Source: Mycobacteriales bacterium | GTDB taxonomy: Bacteria; Actinomycetota; Actinomycetes; Mycobacteriales; SCTD01 | Direction: 5' to 3' | Assembly (NCBI GenBank): GCA_046590985.1 | Contig: JBKJVH010000009.1 | Coordinates: 1-47,241, forward strand | DNA length: 47,241 bases | Shown here: positions 5,748-47,241 of the stretch, in pieces | Layout: every line of letters begins with the position of its first letter | How positions within the stretch are numbered: the first letter of the stretch is position 1 | Program-made: the position numbers and the translations under genes | The notes under the pieces: model-generated | What the model saw: the letters and a program-made list of their open reading frames with translations, nothing else | What the model was told of the DNA's origin: nothing | The model's database searches: none

Positions 5748-6293
5748 CTACAGCCGGTAGGACATCCGGGCAGTGACGACCGCGTCCGCCAGGCTGGCGT
5801 ACATCGTGGCGTTCTCCAGGGCGACCGCGGCGAGGCTGGCGAGCGCCACCGCGAGCTCGGCGTCCTCCTCGGTGAAGGACCCGGTGAGCTTGTTCATGAC
5901 CTCGATGACGCCGAGCGCCTTGCTGCCCATCATCAGCGGCGCGGCGATGAGGGACTCGGTCGCGGTGCCCATCGCCTTGTCGACCTCGCGGTAGACCTGG
6001 GAGTCTCCGGAGCCCTGCGAGACGATAACCGGCTTGCCCTCGCGCAGGGCCTGGCCGGCGACGCCCTGGTCGGACGGCATCCGCTGCCCGACCAGCTCGG
6101 GCTCGGCCGTCGCGACCCGGAACACCAGCTCCTCGCAGGTCGCGTCGAGCAGCAGCAACGAGCCGGACCGGGCCTCGAGCAGCTCGGCGGCGGACGCCAT
6201 GATGAGCTGCAGGAGCTCCTCGAGGTTGAGCGTCGAGCTCAGCTGGGTCGCGATCGCCACCAGACGCTTGAGCTTGTCGGGGGTGTCAGGCAT
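5748..6293 (-). CDS. Stand-alone GAF domain protein
   Basis: [18 protein letters not shown]...ELVF, GVAGQ, SLIAAPL...LGVIEVMNK...FTEEDAEL...AAVALENA (NKFDE-type signature); no output domain. Confidence 0.88.
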
Positions 6294-6308
6294 GTGTGCC
6301 TCCAGGGC

Positions 6309-7658
6309 TCATGACGGCAGGTGACGTTCGATGAAGTCGGTGGCGAAGTCGCCCGACCGGAAGACCGCGTTGGCCATGACCCGGCGGTGGAAGCCGATCG
6401 TGGTCTTGACGCCCGGTCCCTCGACGCGGAACTCCGAGAGGGCTCGGTCCATCCGGTCGATCGCCTCGAGCCGGGTGGGCCCCCACACGATGAGCTTGCC
6501 CAGCAGCGAGTCGTAGTAAGGGCTGACGTTCCAGCCGGTGAAGCAGTGCGAGTCGAACCGGGTCCAGGGGCCGCCGGGCGGCTCCCAGACGTCGAGGCGG
6601 CCGGCCGTGGGGGTGAAGTTGCGGTCCGGGTCCTCGGCGTTGATGCGGCACTCGATGGCGTGACCGCGGATCTCGACCTGGTCCTGGGTGTAGGACAGCG
6701 GCTGGCCCGCTGCGACCCGGATCTGCTCCTGGATGAGGTCGATCGAGGTGACCACCTCGCTGACCGGGTGCTCGACCTGGATGCGGGCGTTCATCTCCAT
6801 GAACGTGAAGTTGCCTTCAGGGTCGAGCAGGAACTCCATCGTGCCCGCGCCGCTGTACCCGACCGAGAGCGCACCACGGACCGCGGCCGCTCCCATCTCG
6901 GCGCGGAGCTCCGGCGGCACCGCGATGGACGGCGCCTCCTCGATCAGCTTCTGGTGCCGGCGCTGCACGGAGCAGTCGCGCTCCCCGAGGTGGATGCCAT
7001 TGCCGAAGTTGTCGCAGACGATCTGGATCTCGGTGTGCCGGGCCGAGGTGAGGTAGCGCTCCATGTAGACCGCGCTGTCCTTGAAGATCGCCTGCGCCGT
7101 GGCACGGGTGGTCTGGTAGGCGTTGCGCAGGTCCTCGCGGCGGTGCACCACCGTCATGCCGCGGCCATCGCCACCAGCGGCGGCCTTGATGATGACGGGG
7201 TAGCCGATCTCCTCGGCGATGGACTCCGCCTCGTCGGCGGTCGCGACCGCCTCGATGGTGCCGGCGAGCAGCGGCAGGCCGGCCTTGGTCATCAGGTCGC
7301 GGGCGGTCGCCTTGTTGCCGACGGACTCCATGACGTCCGGGCGCGGGCCGATGAACGTGATCCCGTTGTCGGTGCAGATCTCCGCGAAGTACGGGTCCTC
7401 GGACAAGAACCCGTACCCGGGGTGGATCGCGTCGGCACCGGTCTTGAGAGCGGCCCCGATGATCGACGGGATGTGGTTGTAGCTGCGCGCGGCAGCCGGC
7501 GGACCGATCTGCACGGACTCGTCCGCGACCTTGGTCACGGCCGAGCCGGCATCGGCGGTGGAGTGGACGGCGACGCTCGCCACTCCCAGCTCGCGGCATG
7601 CCCGAGCCACCCGGAGCGCGATCTCGCCCCGGTTCGCTATCAGGATCTTGTTAAACAG
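6309..7658 (-). CDS. accC: Acetyl-CoA carboxylase biotin carboxylase subunit (CTG start)
   Basis: FNKILIANRGEIA, IHPGYGFLSE, ERDCSVQRRHQK, EMNARIQVEHPV. The conserved N-terminus begins at a CTG 8 nt after GGAGG; in-frame stop at 7686-7688. Confidence 0.93.
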   Translation of the reverse strand: MFNKILIANRGEIALRVARACRELGVASVAVHSTADAGSAVTKVADESVQIGPPAAARSYNHIPSIIGAALKTGADAIHPGYGFLSEDPYFAEICTDNGITFIGPRPDVMESVGNKATARDLMTKAGLPLLAGTIEAVATADEAESIAEEIGYPVIIKAAAGGDGRGMTVVHRREDLRNAYQTTRATAQAIFKDSAVYMERYLTSARHTEIQIVCDNFGNGIHLGERDCSVQRRHQKLIEEAPSIAVPPELRAEMGAAAVRGALSVGYSGAGTMEFLLDPEGNFTFMEMNARIQVEHPVSEVVTSIDLIQEQIRVAAGQPLSYTQDQVEIRGHAIECRINAEDPDRNFTPTAGRLDVWEPPGGPWTRFDSHCFTGWNVSPYYDSLLGKLIVWGPTRLEAIDRMDRALSEFRVEGPGVKTTIGFHRRVMANAVFRSGDFATDFIERHLPS

Positions 7659-7675
7659 GGCCCCGACCTCCCGGC

Positions 7676-8161
7676 TCAGTCGCTGTCAGGCGGGTCGACG
7701 TACATGAGCGCCTGACCGAACTCGACCATGACACCGTCCTCGACGAGGATGGCCGTGACCTTGCCGGAGACCTCGCACGGGATCCGGTTCATCATCTTCA
7801 TCGCCTCGATGATGGCGACCTCCTGGTCGGCCTCGACCATGTCCCCGACCGAGACGAACGGCGCCGCTCCCGGTTCGGAGGCCCGGTAGAACGCACCCAC
7901 CAGCGGAGCGGTGACCACGAACCGACCCGGCACCTCGTCGGGGGTCGCGACGGTCGCGCTGACCACCGCACCGACGGCGCCGCCCGGTGCAGCGGGCATC
8001 GCCGAAAGGTCCCACTCGATCTCGACGCGGTGCTCACCGCCCTGCACGCTGAGGCGCTTCACCGGTCCGGACACCCGACCCAGCAGGTCGCGCGCCTCCC
8101 GGCAGACGCTGCGCAGCAGCGCGTCCTCGCCGTCGGCCACCGTTTCGGCCTGGTCGCTCAT
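7676..8161 (-). CDS. accB: Biotin carboxyl carrier protein
   Basis: VTAPLVGAFYRA...PFV and biotinylation motif IEAMKMMN. Confidence 0.95.
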   Translation of the reverse strand: MSDQAETVADGEDALLRSVCREARDLLGRVSGPVKRLSVQGGEHRVEIEWDLSAMPAAPGGAVGAVVSATVATPDEVPGRFVVTAPLVGAFYRASEPGAAPFVSVGDMVEADQEVAIIEAMKMMNRIPCEVSGKVTAILVEDGVMVEFGQALMYVDPPDSD

Positions 8162-45886: not shown

Positions 45887-46369
45887 TCACATCCCCTCCA
45901 TCCGGCCGGAGCGCACGTCATAGCGGAAGCCGTGCACCTCCAGACCCTCGGGCAGCAGCGGCGAGGTCGCGACCGTAGCCACGTCCAGCCACAGCGCGTG
46001 GTCGGCGTCCTCAGCCGTCATGAAGTCCTCGTCGGTCGTCGCGCCGACCTGCTCGACGAGCGCCTGCAGGTCCTCATTCCCGTGCTTGGCCATCCCGCAG
46101 TCCGTGTGGTGCACCACCGCGACCACGCGCACCGCCATGGCGAGGGTCGACACCACCAGCGACCTGATCACGTCGTCGTTCACCCGGCCGCCGGCATTGC
46201 GCATCACGTGCATGTCCCCCGCGGCCAGCCCGAACATCGCGAGCGGGTCGATGCGCGCATCCATGCAGGTGACCACCGCCAGGTGCCGGCGCGGCGGGCT
46301 CGCCAGGGCAACGCCGGCAAACCCTGAGACATGCGCGACGTTCCCGGCCAGCAGCTCCTCCCGGGTCAT
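45887..46369 (-). CDS. Beta-class carbonic anhydrase
   Basis: Zn ligands TCMDAR and HHTDCGM; RNAGG. Confidence 0.93.
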   Translation of the reverse strand: MTREELLAGNVAHVSGFAGVALASPPRRHLAVVTCMDARIDPLAMFGLAAGDMHVMRNAGGRVNDDVIRSLVVSTLAMAVRVVAVVHHTDCGMAKHGNEDLQALVEQVGATTDEDFMTAEDADHALWLDVATVATSPLLPEGLEVHGFRYDVRSGRMEGM

Positions 46370-46442
46370 GCTCAAGCGCTTCCCCTCCCGTCCCTGCGGG
46401 GACACTCGCACATCTCGCTCCGGTGTGCACAAGTCCCTGATC

Positions 46443-46470
46443 TTGACCCGCTGAAACACGGGGATACGCT
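46443..46470 (+). promoter_or_regulatory. Putative promoter TTGACC-N16-TACGCT for the MBL gene
   Basis: Hexamer match about 30 nt upstream of the TTG start. Confidence 0.45.
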
Positions 46471-46499
46471 GCGCCGTCACGATGACGAGAGGGGGCGCG

Positions 46500-47241
46500 T
46501 TGCGGGTTCACCTGTGTGGGGTACGGGGGTCCACTCCCGTGTCCGGCGAGGCCTTCCTGCGCTACGGGGGACACACGTCCTGCGTGGCGCTCGCCCACGA
46601 CGGCGAGGACTCGTCGCTGGTGCTCGATGCCGGTACGGGGCTGCAGCTGCTGGCCGCGCAGCTCGGCGACCGGCCGTTCCGAGGCACGGTGCTGCTGAGC
46701 CACCTGCACTGGGACCACACGCAGGGACTGCCCTTCTTCCCACCAGCTGACCGTCCCGAGGCGCGAGTCGCGGTGCGCCTTCCCGCGCAGCCCGACGATG
46801 CCACGGTGCTGTCGGTCTTCATGGGTCCGCCGTTCTTCCCCATCACCCCCGCGCAGCTCCGCGGCGCCTGGTCCACCGAAGGGCTCGCGGCGGGCGAGCA
46901 CGAGCTCGAGGGCTTTCGGGTGCTGGCGCTGGAGATCCCGCACCGCGGCGGCCGGACCTTCGGGTTCCGCGTCTCCTCCGGTGGCCGGACGGTGGCCTAC
47001 CTCAGCGACCACTGCCCCACCGACCTCGGCCCCGGGGAGGACGGCCAGGGCGCCTTCCACCCCGCCGCCCGCGCGCTCTGCCAGGACGCAGACCTGCTGC
47101 TGCACGACGCCCAGTACACCGCCGAGCAGCTCGTCACGCATGGCGACTTCGGTCACAGCACGGTGGACTACGCCGTCGGACTCGCGCAGGCGTGCGACGT
47201 GCAGCAGCTGCTGCTGTTCCACCACGAGCCGACCCGGACCG
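46500..47241 (+). CDS. MBL-fold metallo-hydrolase (putative phosphodiesterase), truncated by the window edge; absent from the ORF track
   Basis: Manual translation from TTG after AGAGGGG: MRVHLCGVRGSTP...RYGGHTSCV...LDAGTG...SHLHWDHTQGLPFF...HDAQY...FGHS...LFHHEP. Confidence 0.9.
   Translation, partial: MRVHLCGVRGSTPVSGEAFLRYGGHTSCVALAHDGEDSSLVLDAGTGLQLLAAQLGDRPFRGTVLLSHLHWDHTQGLPFFPPADRPEARVAVRLPAQPDDATVLSVFMGPPFFPITPAQLRGAWSTEGLAAGEHELEGFRVLALEIPHRGGRTFGFRVSSGGRTVAYLSDHCPTDLGPGEDGQGAFHPAARALCQDADLLLHDAQYTAEQLVTHGDFGHSTVDYAVGLAQACDVQQLLLFHHEPTRT

Follow-up and report, generated by a model that had tools for sequence, protein, structure and literature searches.

Control of type II polyketide synthase (PKS) clusters is normally described in terms of transcription factors encoded within the cluster. 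The locus studied here raises the question of whether an aromatic polyketide pathway could be controlled at the protein level by a second messenger. The window, i.e. the whole stretch of DNA that was analysed, is 47,241 nucleotides long (contig JBKJVH010000009.1, assembly GCA_046590985.1, Mycobacteriales bacterium), has a G+C content of about 70% and is the complete contig C104 of a metagenome-assembled genome (MAG) referred to as G000 (3.46 Mb, 259 contigs, 78% complete). An initial annotation had assigned positions 5748-47241 to a cyclic-nucleotide-gated hybrid pathway for an aromatic polyketide and a lipid, with type II PKS genes lying among genes for cyclic-nucleotide-binding (cNMP), FHA, GAF, TPR and metallo-beta-lactamase (MBL) proteins. 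All of these genes and domains were recovered in place by Pfam. The segment is an island, and its aromatic PKS belongs to a clade of clusters in which a patatin with an N-terminal cNMP domain, the cNMP-patatin, is built into the minimal-PKS operon. This clade is real and its core is conserved.

Genes were called from the codon-position G+C pattern and named with Pfam and NCBIfam, and the domain scan covered the 37 genes within 5748-47241. No helix-turn-helix or other DNA-binding Pfam domain was found in these 37 genes, as the initial annotation had observed for DNA-binding regulators. Named relatives of the window proteins come from Actinomycetota. Tentatively, and with slightly more doubt than confidence, we read the island as two PKS modules, one aromatic (module A) and one reducing (module B), that cooperate under cNMP and phospho-threonine control.

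The cNMP-patatin of the aromatic operon

The genes of module A are ordered cupin, ketosynthase (KSalpha), chain length factor (CLF), cNMP-patatin 1, acyl carrier protein (ACP) and SRPBCC cyclase, which without the patatin gene is the conventional actinomycete order. By alignment, KSalpha has a Cys-His-His active site, and CLF has a Gln at the Cys position and is missing both His; the CLF reading frame, which starts at 39545, overlaps the end of KSalpha. When one genome per species was scanned, four related loci were identified with a KSalpha 75-77% identical to that of the window: L013 and L014 in Solirubrobacterales MAGs (G041 and G042), L015 in an 'Actinomycetes' MAG (G043) and L016 in an Acidimicrobiaceae MAG (G044). 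All four keep cupin-KSalpha-CLF-cNMP-patatin-ACP-cyclase, and together with the window and a cluster in G188 they make up a KSalpha clade of six clusters.

In the window and the five related clusters a cNMP-patatin gene of 1.7 kb parts CLF from ACP and interrupts the contiguous KSalpha-CLF-ACP order. The patatin gene is thus found between CLF and ACP in 6/6 clusters of the clade versus 0/26 conventional clusters. The latter comprise six loci of cultured actinomycetes (KSalpha 55-66%, 10 kb flanks) and 20 loci (KSalpha 53-68%, 1.5 kb flanks) from 11 of 400 sampled genomes of the phylum, including all 10 large genomes of one genus; ACP directly follows CLF in four of these 20. Unpublished genomes (G163, G385, G282, G131, G062, G217, G433, G269, G191, G125, G378 and possibly G023 and/or G030) entered only as counts of no match or of FabF-level matches.

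Patatin 1 forms its own orthologue group, with 45-58% identity among clade members and 31% identity to cNMP-patatin 2, which lies beside the operon. The GAGGAKG oxyanion motif, the GSSIG nucleophile motif and the VDG Asp are conserved in 6/6 orthologues; the corresponding motifs of patatin 2 are GGGARG, GTSMG and DGG.

The intact Ser-Asp dyad and oxyanion motif would suit a genuine phospholipase releasing a fatty acid from the membrane lipids, after which an acyl-AMP ligase would load this starter on the ACP and the cNMP domain would time the diversion. The gene order is in keeping with it, as L013, L014 and L015 carry an AMP-binding ligase gene between CLF and patatin 1, giving the order CLF, ligase, cNMP-patatin, ACP. 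In addition, the small cyclase adjoining a cluster of the clade (see below) finds its best match in the cyclase domain of the NCBIfam LipJ lipase/adenylate cyclase model, at 91.9 bits versus a cut-off of 800. The window, L016 and G188, however, keep patatin 1 without the ligase, and no AMP-binding domain was found in the window; the reducing cassette would have to replace the ligase route in the window and G188. Also, an editing or off-loading thioesterase role fits the position equally well, by comparison with the AT-like editing enzymes of initiation modules described in a recent review (PMC12664062). We consider the phospholipase role, which concerns patatin 1 only, unlikely; it overlaps the other three readings discussed here and was judged separately from them.

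Other genes recur around the aromatic core, near which ABM, FAD and F420-type redox genes are located. In L015, the genes TPR-AccDA-BCCP-AccC-GAF-FabD lie directly upstream of the cupin gene, with a 42% orthologue of TPR protein 1 heading the acetyl-CoA carboxylase (ACC) operon. ACC sets were found beside KS/CLF in L015, L018, L019 and L021, and orthologues of the GAF protein next to AccC in L015 (52%) and L128 (36%). L016 has pyruvate kinase (68%) and FabD upstream and a patatin 2 orthologue (48%) downstream at the same place as in the window, and a 41% orthologue of the beta-carbonic anhydrase ends the G188 cluster. No orthologue of TPR protein 2 was found in the related loci compared. A Pta gene adjoins the cluster in G041, G042, G043 and G188 (L013:6698-8782, L014, L118:2991-5036 and L115:1-1800), pyruvate kinase taking its place in G000 and G044, so that a central-carbon gene recurs beside this cluster family.

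Sensor domains, cyclases and kinases

Twelve matches to cNMP_binding were found in the 3.46 Mb genome, and four of these are in the window, which makes up 1.4% of it (expected 0.164, Poisson p = 2.6e-5). Two of the eight FHA matches of the genome are also in the window (p = 5.6e-3). The four cNMP domains cannot be counted as independent of one another, since the MMPL and ABC exporters carry paralogous cNMP-FHA modules. The tail of the former (13872-14609) and the head of the latter (31021-31890) are 46% identical over 227 aa, and one exporter appears to have gained its sensor module as a copy of the other's. Among the 19 matches that a word-limited search returned for the MMPL tail, none had an MMPL domain, and the closest (54%) was a cNMP-FHA-ABC exporter. 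The MMPL protein scored 232 bits with Pfam MMPL, above the cut-off, and 437 bits with NCBIfam MmpL3, whose cut-off is 1400.

The phosphate-binding cassette motif, Gly-Glu ... Arg-Ser/Thr-Ala, has its canonical form in the ABC exporter and the two window patatins. The GAF protein was considered as a cNMP-binding GAF. An NKFDE-type motif was not found in this protein by regular expression, and the assignment was not upheld. Elsewhere in the genome, on contig C28, the gene for a 1284 aa cyclase-AAA-TPR protein is immediately followed by that of a cNMP-patatin paralogue with 39% identity to patatin 2 (L152:3766-9236), and a CRP-type factor with cNMP and HTH_Crp_2 domains is encoded about 1.2 kb from the contig tail (L152:18192-18848).

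Enzymes that could make the signals were found close to several clusters of the clade. In G041, a stand-alone class III cyclase of 225 aa lies beside Pta and head-to-head to the cupin gene, from which about 18 bp separate it in the gene calls; the same cyclase-Pta pair is present in G042 with 92% and 91% identity. A Ser/Thr-kinase-GAF protein and a CHASE2-cyclase lie about 12-16 kb from KSalpha in G041, and both are present in G042 too; a kinase-GAF orthologue (62%) is also near the G188 cluster. In G043, an FHA-cyclase is encoded about 10 kb from KSalpha, with a Pta gene next to it, and two Metallophos genes are present. The Metallophos genes of G043 and G233 matched cAMP phosphodiesterase models at 30-35 bits versus a cut-off of 225, and the MBL gene of the window matched a cyclic-nucleotide phosphodiesterase model at 37.6 bits versus 400. 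With scores so far below the cut-offs, a phosphodiesterase role for either is only a suggestion.

A number of these observations weigh against control of the island by cyclic nucleotides and phospho-threonine. The genome's seven class III cyclases and 11 Ser/Thr kinases (Pkinase) all lie outside the window. In G044 and G188, no cyclase is found up to 20 kb from the cluster, and G041 and G042 are so closely related that they provide a single observation. The cassette motif is canonical in only three of six patatin 1 orthologues (G000, G043 and G044), the Glu being lost in G041 and G042 and the Arg in G188, and the MMPL copy is without the Arg-Ser/Thr pair at the canonical place. The exporters are not conserved with the operon either: the MMPL matches in G041-G044 are without the cNMP-FHA tail, G188 has no cNMP-FHA-ABC protein (E <= 1e-60), the copy in G044 is on another contig, and none is near the clusters of G041-G044. 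The expectation from the initial annotation that homologous clusters share the cNMP genes is therefore borne out for the embedded patatin (6/6) and not for the sensor-bearing exporters, which are missing near the clusters of G188 and G041-G044.

Both sensor families are also large and general. Patatin 2 has 3216 homologues, with both domains present in all of the best 120, and the cNMP-FHA-ABC exporter has 7966, with cNMP, FHA and ABC present in 118 of the best 120, for which reason the sensor genes could reflect general membrane-lipid housekeeping. The cNMP, FHA and GAF domains might accordingly be the ordinary baggage of actinobacterial membrane-lipid and transport families, with transcriptional control exerted in trans, for example by a CRP-type factor. 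The degenerate cassettes point the same way, as do the C28 paralogue in its unrelated context, the CRP-type factor on that contig, and a GAF histidine kinase with a HisKA_3 domain inside the G188 cluster, which offers a nearby route to transcription. Baggage would not, however, be expected to put four of 12 cNMP domains into 1.4% of the genome, to fix patatin 1 inside the KSalpha-CLF-ACP operon in 6/6 clusters with its catalytic residues conserved, to place cyclases next to the operon in G041, G042 and G043, or to duplicate a sensor module onto a second, unrelated exporter within the island. We regard this explanation as quite improbable.

The reducing module

The initial annotation had described module B as a FAS-like cassette, and this description had to be replaced. 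Alignment of the six KS-type domains of the island resolved three KS-CLF pairs, one aromatic, one discrete and one fused. In the discrete pair KS_a is active and the Cys of KS_b is replaced by Ala; in the fusion, the N-terminal half has Cys-His-His and the C-terminal half His, Ser and Glu at those places. The best PDB matches were FabF-type enzymes, with 6kxd and 6qsp also among the matches. In addition to its two KS-CLF pairs, module B has one ketoreductase (KR) of the short-chain dehydrogenase/reductase family, two FabA/FabZ-like dehydratases (DH), its own phosphopantetheinyl transferase (PPTase) and its own ACP1, the second ACP besides ACP2 of module A. A domain search found no enoyl reductase family in any scanned gene of the window. 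Because of the KS-CLF pairs, the KR and the DHs, without an enoyl reductase, the cassette is assigned to the highly reducing type II PKSs of the polyene kind and not to the fatty acid synthases. From its enzymes it should build a polyene acyl chain, which is expected from the missing enoyl reductase, and the label 'lipid' is thus imprecise.

In the KASIII-like protein, aligned to FabH (4ryb), the Cys is kept, and Glu and Ala occupy the positions of the FabH His and Asn. Among four orthologues, Glu and Ala are kept in all and Cys in three. As the His and Asn of decarboxylation are replaced, the residues suggest acyl transfer rather than decarboxylative condensation.

Full-length orthologues of the KS-CLF fusion were found in 2/400 of the sampled genomes, G188 (63%) and G233 (59%), and on five metagenome contigs. 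The order DH_a-PPTase-ACP1-KR is also present in G188, G233 and L128. A 38% orthologue of a CrtI-family oxidase follows the fusion in G233 and L124, and CocE/NonD hydrolase orthologues adjoin the cassette in G188 (50%) and L125 (56%). FabD orthologues (59-62%) were found in L015, L122, G188 and L125, and homologues of the FAD monooxygenase in L013, L014, L125 and G188.

The reducing cassette is accompanied by sensor genes elsewhere too. In L128 it is linked to a cNMP-RDD membrane protein, an alpha/beta hydrolase and a GAF-AccC pair, with an ACC set beside the cassette. In G233, two Metallophos phosphoesterases, a flavin reductase, a PNPOx-cNMP fusion and a cNMP-FHA-ABC orthologue (50%) lie within 8 kb after the cassette, the last about 6 kb from it.

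Relationship between the two modules

The hybrid nature proposed initially for the locus is upheld in part, as the two modules are adjacent again in G188 and each also occurs alone. In G188, FAD monooxygenase, cyclase, ACP, cNMP-patatin, CLF, KSalpha and cupin are followed, after 6.5 kb, by module B in the order CocE/NonD, KS-CLF fusion, KS_b, DH, KS_a, DH, PPTase, ACP, KR, FabD and carbonic anhydrase. The 6.5 kb spacer holds a Na/H exchanger-Usp gene, the GAF histidine kinase and a PNPOx-like gene. In the window itself, genes that are contiguous elsewhere, TPR-ACC-GAF-FabD as in L015 and pyruvate kinase as in L016, are split to both sides of module B. The AMP-binding ligase and the reducing cassette appear as alternative states, the ligase in G041-G043 and the cassette in G000 and G188, with neither in G044. 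Their alternation fits alternative supply routes for a non-acetate starter, by analogy with known initiation modules (PMC12664062). Also, orthologues of FabD, FAD monooxygenase, carbonic anhydrase and Metallophos genes are common to the neighbourhoods of both modules. The replaced decarboxylation residues of the KASIII-like protein, kept in 4/4 orthologues, are likewise counted in favour of coupling. The Metallophos gene of G043 (L015:17189-18088) has two tandem orthologues (57% and 51%) beside the reducing cassette of G233 (L116:16117-18407).

A different interpretation of the same region is two independent clusters in one island, one for an aromatic pigment and one for a polyene lipid or pigment exported by MMPL, with no chain passed between them; their neighbourhood would then come from a shared malonyl-CoA supply (ACC, FabD) or from mere assembly of the island. 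Several findings speak for this and against cooperation. No KS-CLF fusion orthologue is present genome-wide in G041-G044, where the aromatic module stands alone. Conversely, module B is without an aromatic KS in the available pieces of G233, L124-L127 and L128, which are contig-limited; the G233 cassette begins 425 nt from a contig end, which limits this point. In G188, KSalpha/CLF change frame three times in about 2.5 kb (L150, G188:C1:389000-399000, at about 6450-8990), unlike module B, patatin 1, ACP and cyclase, which read through. These frame changes reflect either decay, with KSalpha/CLF a possible pseudogene pair, or local misassembly. Module B may therefore work without an aromatic PKS, unless the stretch is misassembled. 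It also has, besides its own ACP and PPTase, its own tailoring oxidases and methyltransferase and the MMPL exporter, as a self-contained pathway would. Moreover, the KASIII-like protein has neither priming-KS triad, Cys-His-Asn or Ser-His-Asp, as these are given in PMC12664062.

Independence is harder to reconcile with the accessory genes interleaved around the cassette in the window, with the renewed adjacency of the modules in G188, which belongs to a different family, with the mutual exclusion of AMP-ligase and reducing cassette in 5/6 clade members, and with the orthologues found near both modules. Two independent clusters are, on this balance, quite possible, although we lean against them.

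Boundaries of the island

Neither KSalpha nor the KS-CLF fusion has an orthologue in 22 same-genus and two same-family genomes (completeness 72-98%, E <= 1e-120), and patatin 2 has none in the 22 same-genus genomes, only paralogue-level matches of at most 42%. The MiaB-like gene to the left of the GAF gene is 81-87% identical in 15/16 same-genus genomes, as opposed to 66-73% in the order's other families, which assigns the contig to this genus. Mis-binning was thereby ruled out for its left end.

RecX and CysRS are within 2 kb of MiaB in two same-genus genomes, G001 and G005; in G006, the third same-genus genome examined, they were not found near MiaB. In G000, the same genes are on contig C210, beyond the MBL gene. 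Reversed, C210 matches the last 358 nt of the window at 322 positions (90%), an inexact overlap, and the MBL C-terminus encoded on it is 91% identical. Past the window, C210 continues with MBL, an unnamed open reading frame (ORF), an S8-like gene, CysRS, BLUF, a second unnamed ORF and RecX. C210 is the probable right-hand continuation of the window, since same-genus synteny agrees. As the overlap is only 90%, C210 may derive from a co-assembled strain variant, and the right junction is probable, short of proven. On the left, the tail of contig C28 matches the first 222 nt of the window inexactly (213/222). The 41-mer at the head of C28 recurs on seven other contigs, and because of this repeat the link is regarded as unproven.

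The region from GAF to just past MBL, about 42 kb, is one horizontally acquired insertion between conserved neighbours, given that MiaB and RecX-CysRS are neighbours in two same-genus genomes. The span 5748-47241 chosen in the initial annotation thereby coincides with the inserted unit, as judged by same-genus synteny and the missing orthologues. On C210, a stand-alone BLUF blue-light sensor (165 aa) and a 179 aa ORF are located between CysRS and RecX (L151:910-1958), genes that are only about 64 nt apart in G001, which indicates a second small lineage-specific insertion beside the island in G000. To the left of MiaB, outside the island, an HATPase_c_2 protein resembling anti-sigma-factor kinases is encoded at 986-1576 (+), and the ORF at 140-922 has no Pfam match.

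Gene content of the island

The features of the island are listed in Table 1. The inventory of the initial annotation was incomplete, since it did not list the PPTase, KASIII-like protein, CocE/NonD hydrolase, two CrtI-family oxidases, methyltransferase, FabD, FAD monooxygenase, F420H2-reductase-like protein, pyruvate kinase, alpha/beta hydrolase, ABM monooxygenase, cupin and beta-carbonic anhydrase. Gaps between genes are short. The largest, 37101-37812, has the ABM monooxygenase gene as its sole coding-like ORF; this gene occupies an apparently intergenic stretch of 711 bp ahead of the cupin gene, where the local G+C is lower (0.65). Rfam at the gathering threshold returned a single tRNA over the window, at 1924-1996 (-), and nothing else, and control by a riboswitch or other RNA was rejected.

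Table 1. Features of the island at positions 5748-47241 of the window.
Feature	Position	Strand	Basis
Stand-alone GAF protein, left edge of island, immediately upstream of conserved MiaB-like gene	5748-6293	-	Pfam GAF, GAF_2, GAF_3
ACC set: AccC 6309-7610, BCCP 7676-8161, fused AccD-AccA 8158-9846	6309-9846	-	Pfam
TPR protein 1	9846-10727	-	Pfam TPR families
F420H2-dependent quinone reductase-like protein	11191-11631	+	Pfam PF04075, E = 1.1e-7; coding-like third-position G+C (GC3) 0.87
FAD-dependent aromatic monooxygenase, start inferred at 11703	11703-12896	+	Pfam FAD_binding_3; start codons
FabD malonyl-CoA:ACP transacylase, start inferred at 13836	12889-13836	-	NCBIfam fabD, 289 bits > 260.9 cut-off
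MMPL (RND) exporter with C-terminal cNMP-binding + FHA tail	13869-16811	-	Pfam MMPL, cNMP_binding, FHA
Two CrtI-family (phytoene-desaturase-like) flavin oxidases	16840-18363, 18403-19926	-	Pfam Amino_oxidase; NCBIfam crtI_fam below cut-off
S-adenosylmethionine (SAM)-dependent methyltransferase	20013-20681	+	Pfam Methyltransf_12, _23, _25, _11
CocE/NonD-family (S15) hydrolase	20862-22523	-	NCBIfam TIGR00976, 442 bits, above cut-off
KASIII-like protein	22530-23621	-	Pfam ACP_syn_III; alignment to FabH 4ryb
Fused KS-CLF, 787 aa	23618-25981	-	Pfam, two KS domain pairs; active-site alignment
CLF-like KS_b 25995-27263, FabZ-like DH_b 27260-27634, active KS_a 27631-28887	25995-28890	-	Pfam; active sites; start codons; NCBIfam FabZ-like below cut-off
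FabZ-like DH_a 28884-29333, PPTase 29335-29736, ACP1 29720-30121, ketoreductase 30170-30943	28884-30943	-	Pfam FabA, ACPS, PP-binding, adh_short, KR
cNMP-FHA-ABC-ABC2 exporter, one polypeptide, 849 aa	31021-33570	+	Pfam FHA, ABC_tran, ABC2_membrane, cNMP
Pyruvate kinase	33573-35051	-	Pfam PK, PK_C
Alpha/beta hydrolase; about 270 C-terminal residues without Pfam match	35479-37101	-	Pfam Abhydrolase_1, residues 24-265 of 540
ABM-family (antibiotic biosynthesis) monooxygenase, 100 aa	37239-37541	-	Pfam PF03992, E = 9e-15
Cupin 37812-38225, KSalpha 38280-39548, CLF 39545-40789	37812-40789	+	Pfam; active sites; start codons
cNMP-patatin 1, start at 40717 or 40786	40717-42414	+	Pfam cNMP_binding, Patatin
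ACP2 42407-42661, TcmN-type SRPBCC aromatase/cyclase 42665-43117	42407-43117	+	Pfam PP-binding, Polyketide_cyc, Polyketide_cyc2; start codon
TPR protein 2	43133-44134	-	Pfam TPR families
cNMP-patatin 2 (NTE family)	44149-45921	-	Pfam
Beta-class carbonic anhydrase	45887-46480	-	Pfam Pro_CA
MBL-fold hydrolase, right edge of island, truncated by contig end	46482-47241	+	Pfam Lactamase_B_2

Comparison with known systems

We take the aromatic module to be of the spore-pigment (whiE)/tetracenomycin kind. Clusters of that kind share with it the cupin, KSalpha, CLF with Gln, ACP, TcmN-type cyclase and ABM and FAD monooxygenases, and the conventional loci compared above have the cupin-KSalpha-CLF-ACP order, a KSalpha 53-68% identical to that of the window and, in L018, L019 and L021, an ACC set beside KS/CLF. 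The window differs from them by the cNMP-patatin between CLF and ACP with a second one beside the operon, by the absence from the window of a SARP, TetR or other DNA-binding gene, by the reducing type II PKS in the same island and by the hosts of its clade, which are uncultured Actinomycetota with small genomes.

The mycobacterial protein Rv2565 is a bacterial homologue of the NTE family. Like members of the NTE/PNPLA6/Swiss-cheese family (PMC12710771), both window patatins combine an N-terminal cNMP domain with a downstream patatin domain that has a Ser-Asp dyad; patatin 1 differs in being an orthologue group of its own with a fixed place inside a PKS operon. The ABC exporter resembles the Rv1747-type FHA-ABC exporters regulated by Ser/Thr phosphorylation (PMC3138270) in combining FHA, nucleotide-binding and ABC-2 domains in one polypeptide. 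It differs in having one FHA domain preceded by a cNMP domain, not two FHA domains, in the lack of a kinase gene in the operon and in that its sensor head is also copied onto the MMPL exporter. L013 has a version with an FHA-ABC gene and a separate ABC-2 permease gene.

Aryl polyene clusters carry genes for activation of an aryl starter and for lipid anchoring beside KS-CLF, KR and DH. Identification of module B as an aryl polyene cluster was rejected, as the window is without AMP-binding, ammonia-lyase, LolA-like and glycerolipid acyltransferase domains. With the ishigamide and aryl polyene systems (PMC8358021 and PMC10698177), module B shares a KS-CLF with a Cys-less CLF, the KR, FabZ-like DHs and the missing enoyl reductase, whereas the fused KS-CLF of 787 aa, the CrtI-like oxidases, the CocE/NonD hydrolase and the MMPL exporter set it apart.

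Bimodular type II PKSs with initiation modules are represented by R1128, fredericamycin, hedamycin and benastatin, acyl ligases being another way to bring in a primer (PMC12664062 and, for the former, PMC340942). Like these systems, the island places a second KS-type set beside a minimal aromatic PKS and equips that set with a dedicated ACP, a KASIII-like protein and an additional acyltransferase; its relatives have an acyl ligase at the corresponding place. Unlike them, its candidate initiation module would be a complete highly reducing PKS with two KS-CLF pairs, the coupling is predicted from gene neighbourhood, and the KASIII-like protein has neither of the two triads.

Indexed, non-subscription literature yielded no type II PKS operon that contains a patatin or cNMP protein, no cyclase abutting such an operon, no fused KS-CLF cassette coupled to an aromatic PKS and no MMPL exporter with a cNMP-FHA tail. 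The 2025 review PMC12664062 mentions neither patatin nor cAMP, and the main text of the 2023 catalogue PMC10132072 mentions no patatin, cyclic nucleotide or MAG lineage names, although its supplementary cluster tables could list clade members. Within that literature, the initial statement that no biosynthetic gene cluster is described as wired in this way still stands. The clade is apparently a real and undescribed variant of the type II PKS clusters, whose component parts are of already known kinds.

A model for the island and its implications

The cooperation of the two modules that we tentatively prefer may be depicted as follows, the product, the coupling, ligand binding and the direction of regulation being what we infer. 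The island encodes two type II PKSs with a precursor supply and export of its own. Module A is a non-reducing aromatic PKS whose product would be tailored by the ABM, FAD and F420-type redox enzymes, and the polyene chain predicted for module B would be modified by the two CrtI-like oxidases and the methyltransferase. This chain may prime the aromatic PKS or become attached to the aromatic product, the transfer being carried out by the KASIII-like acyltransferase, the CocE/NonD hydrolase or the embedded patatin. Malonyl-CoA would be provided by the ACC, carbonic anhydrase, pyruvate kinase and FabD of the island.

Control would be exerted largely at the protein level, through a putative cNMP-gated acyl hydrolase or transferase of lipase fold inside the minimal-PKS operon, with a second one beside it. 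Both exporters would respond through the cNMP-FHA sensor module that they have in common by duplication, and the ACC operon has a GAF protein at its head. Chain priming or release and export may thus be set by cAMP or cGMP from cyclases encoded elsewhere in the genome and by Ser/Thr phosphorylation that the FHA domains recognise. A stricter version, in which the cNMP-patatin is an allosterically gated, integral PKS subunit, the same messenger opens both exporters, GAF tunes ACC and the product is a polyene-primed or polyene-acylated aromatic compound, is rather unlikely.

Among antibiotic and pigment pathways, type II PKS clusters have received some of the closest study. The present clade differs from them by a cyclic-nucleotide-sensing lipase-fold enzyme in the minimal-PKS operon and by recurring cyclases, kinase-GAF proteins and cNMP-tagged exporters, which makes second-messenger control at the enzyme level a testable proposition. 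The pairing of a polyene-type with an aromatic PKS suggests a polyene-primed or acylated polyphenol made wholly by type II machinery, a product class that we did not find described. If the proposed control is true, enzymes and pumps that respond to cAMP or cGMP and to phospho-threonine signals would determine the flux through the pathway, in place of a cluster-situated transcription factor, and silent pathways could be activated in heterologous hosts by a new means.

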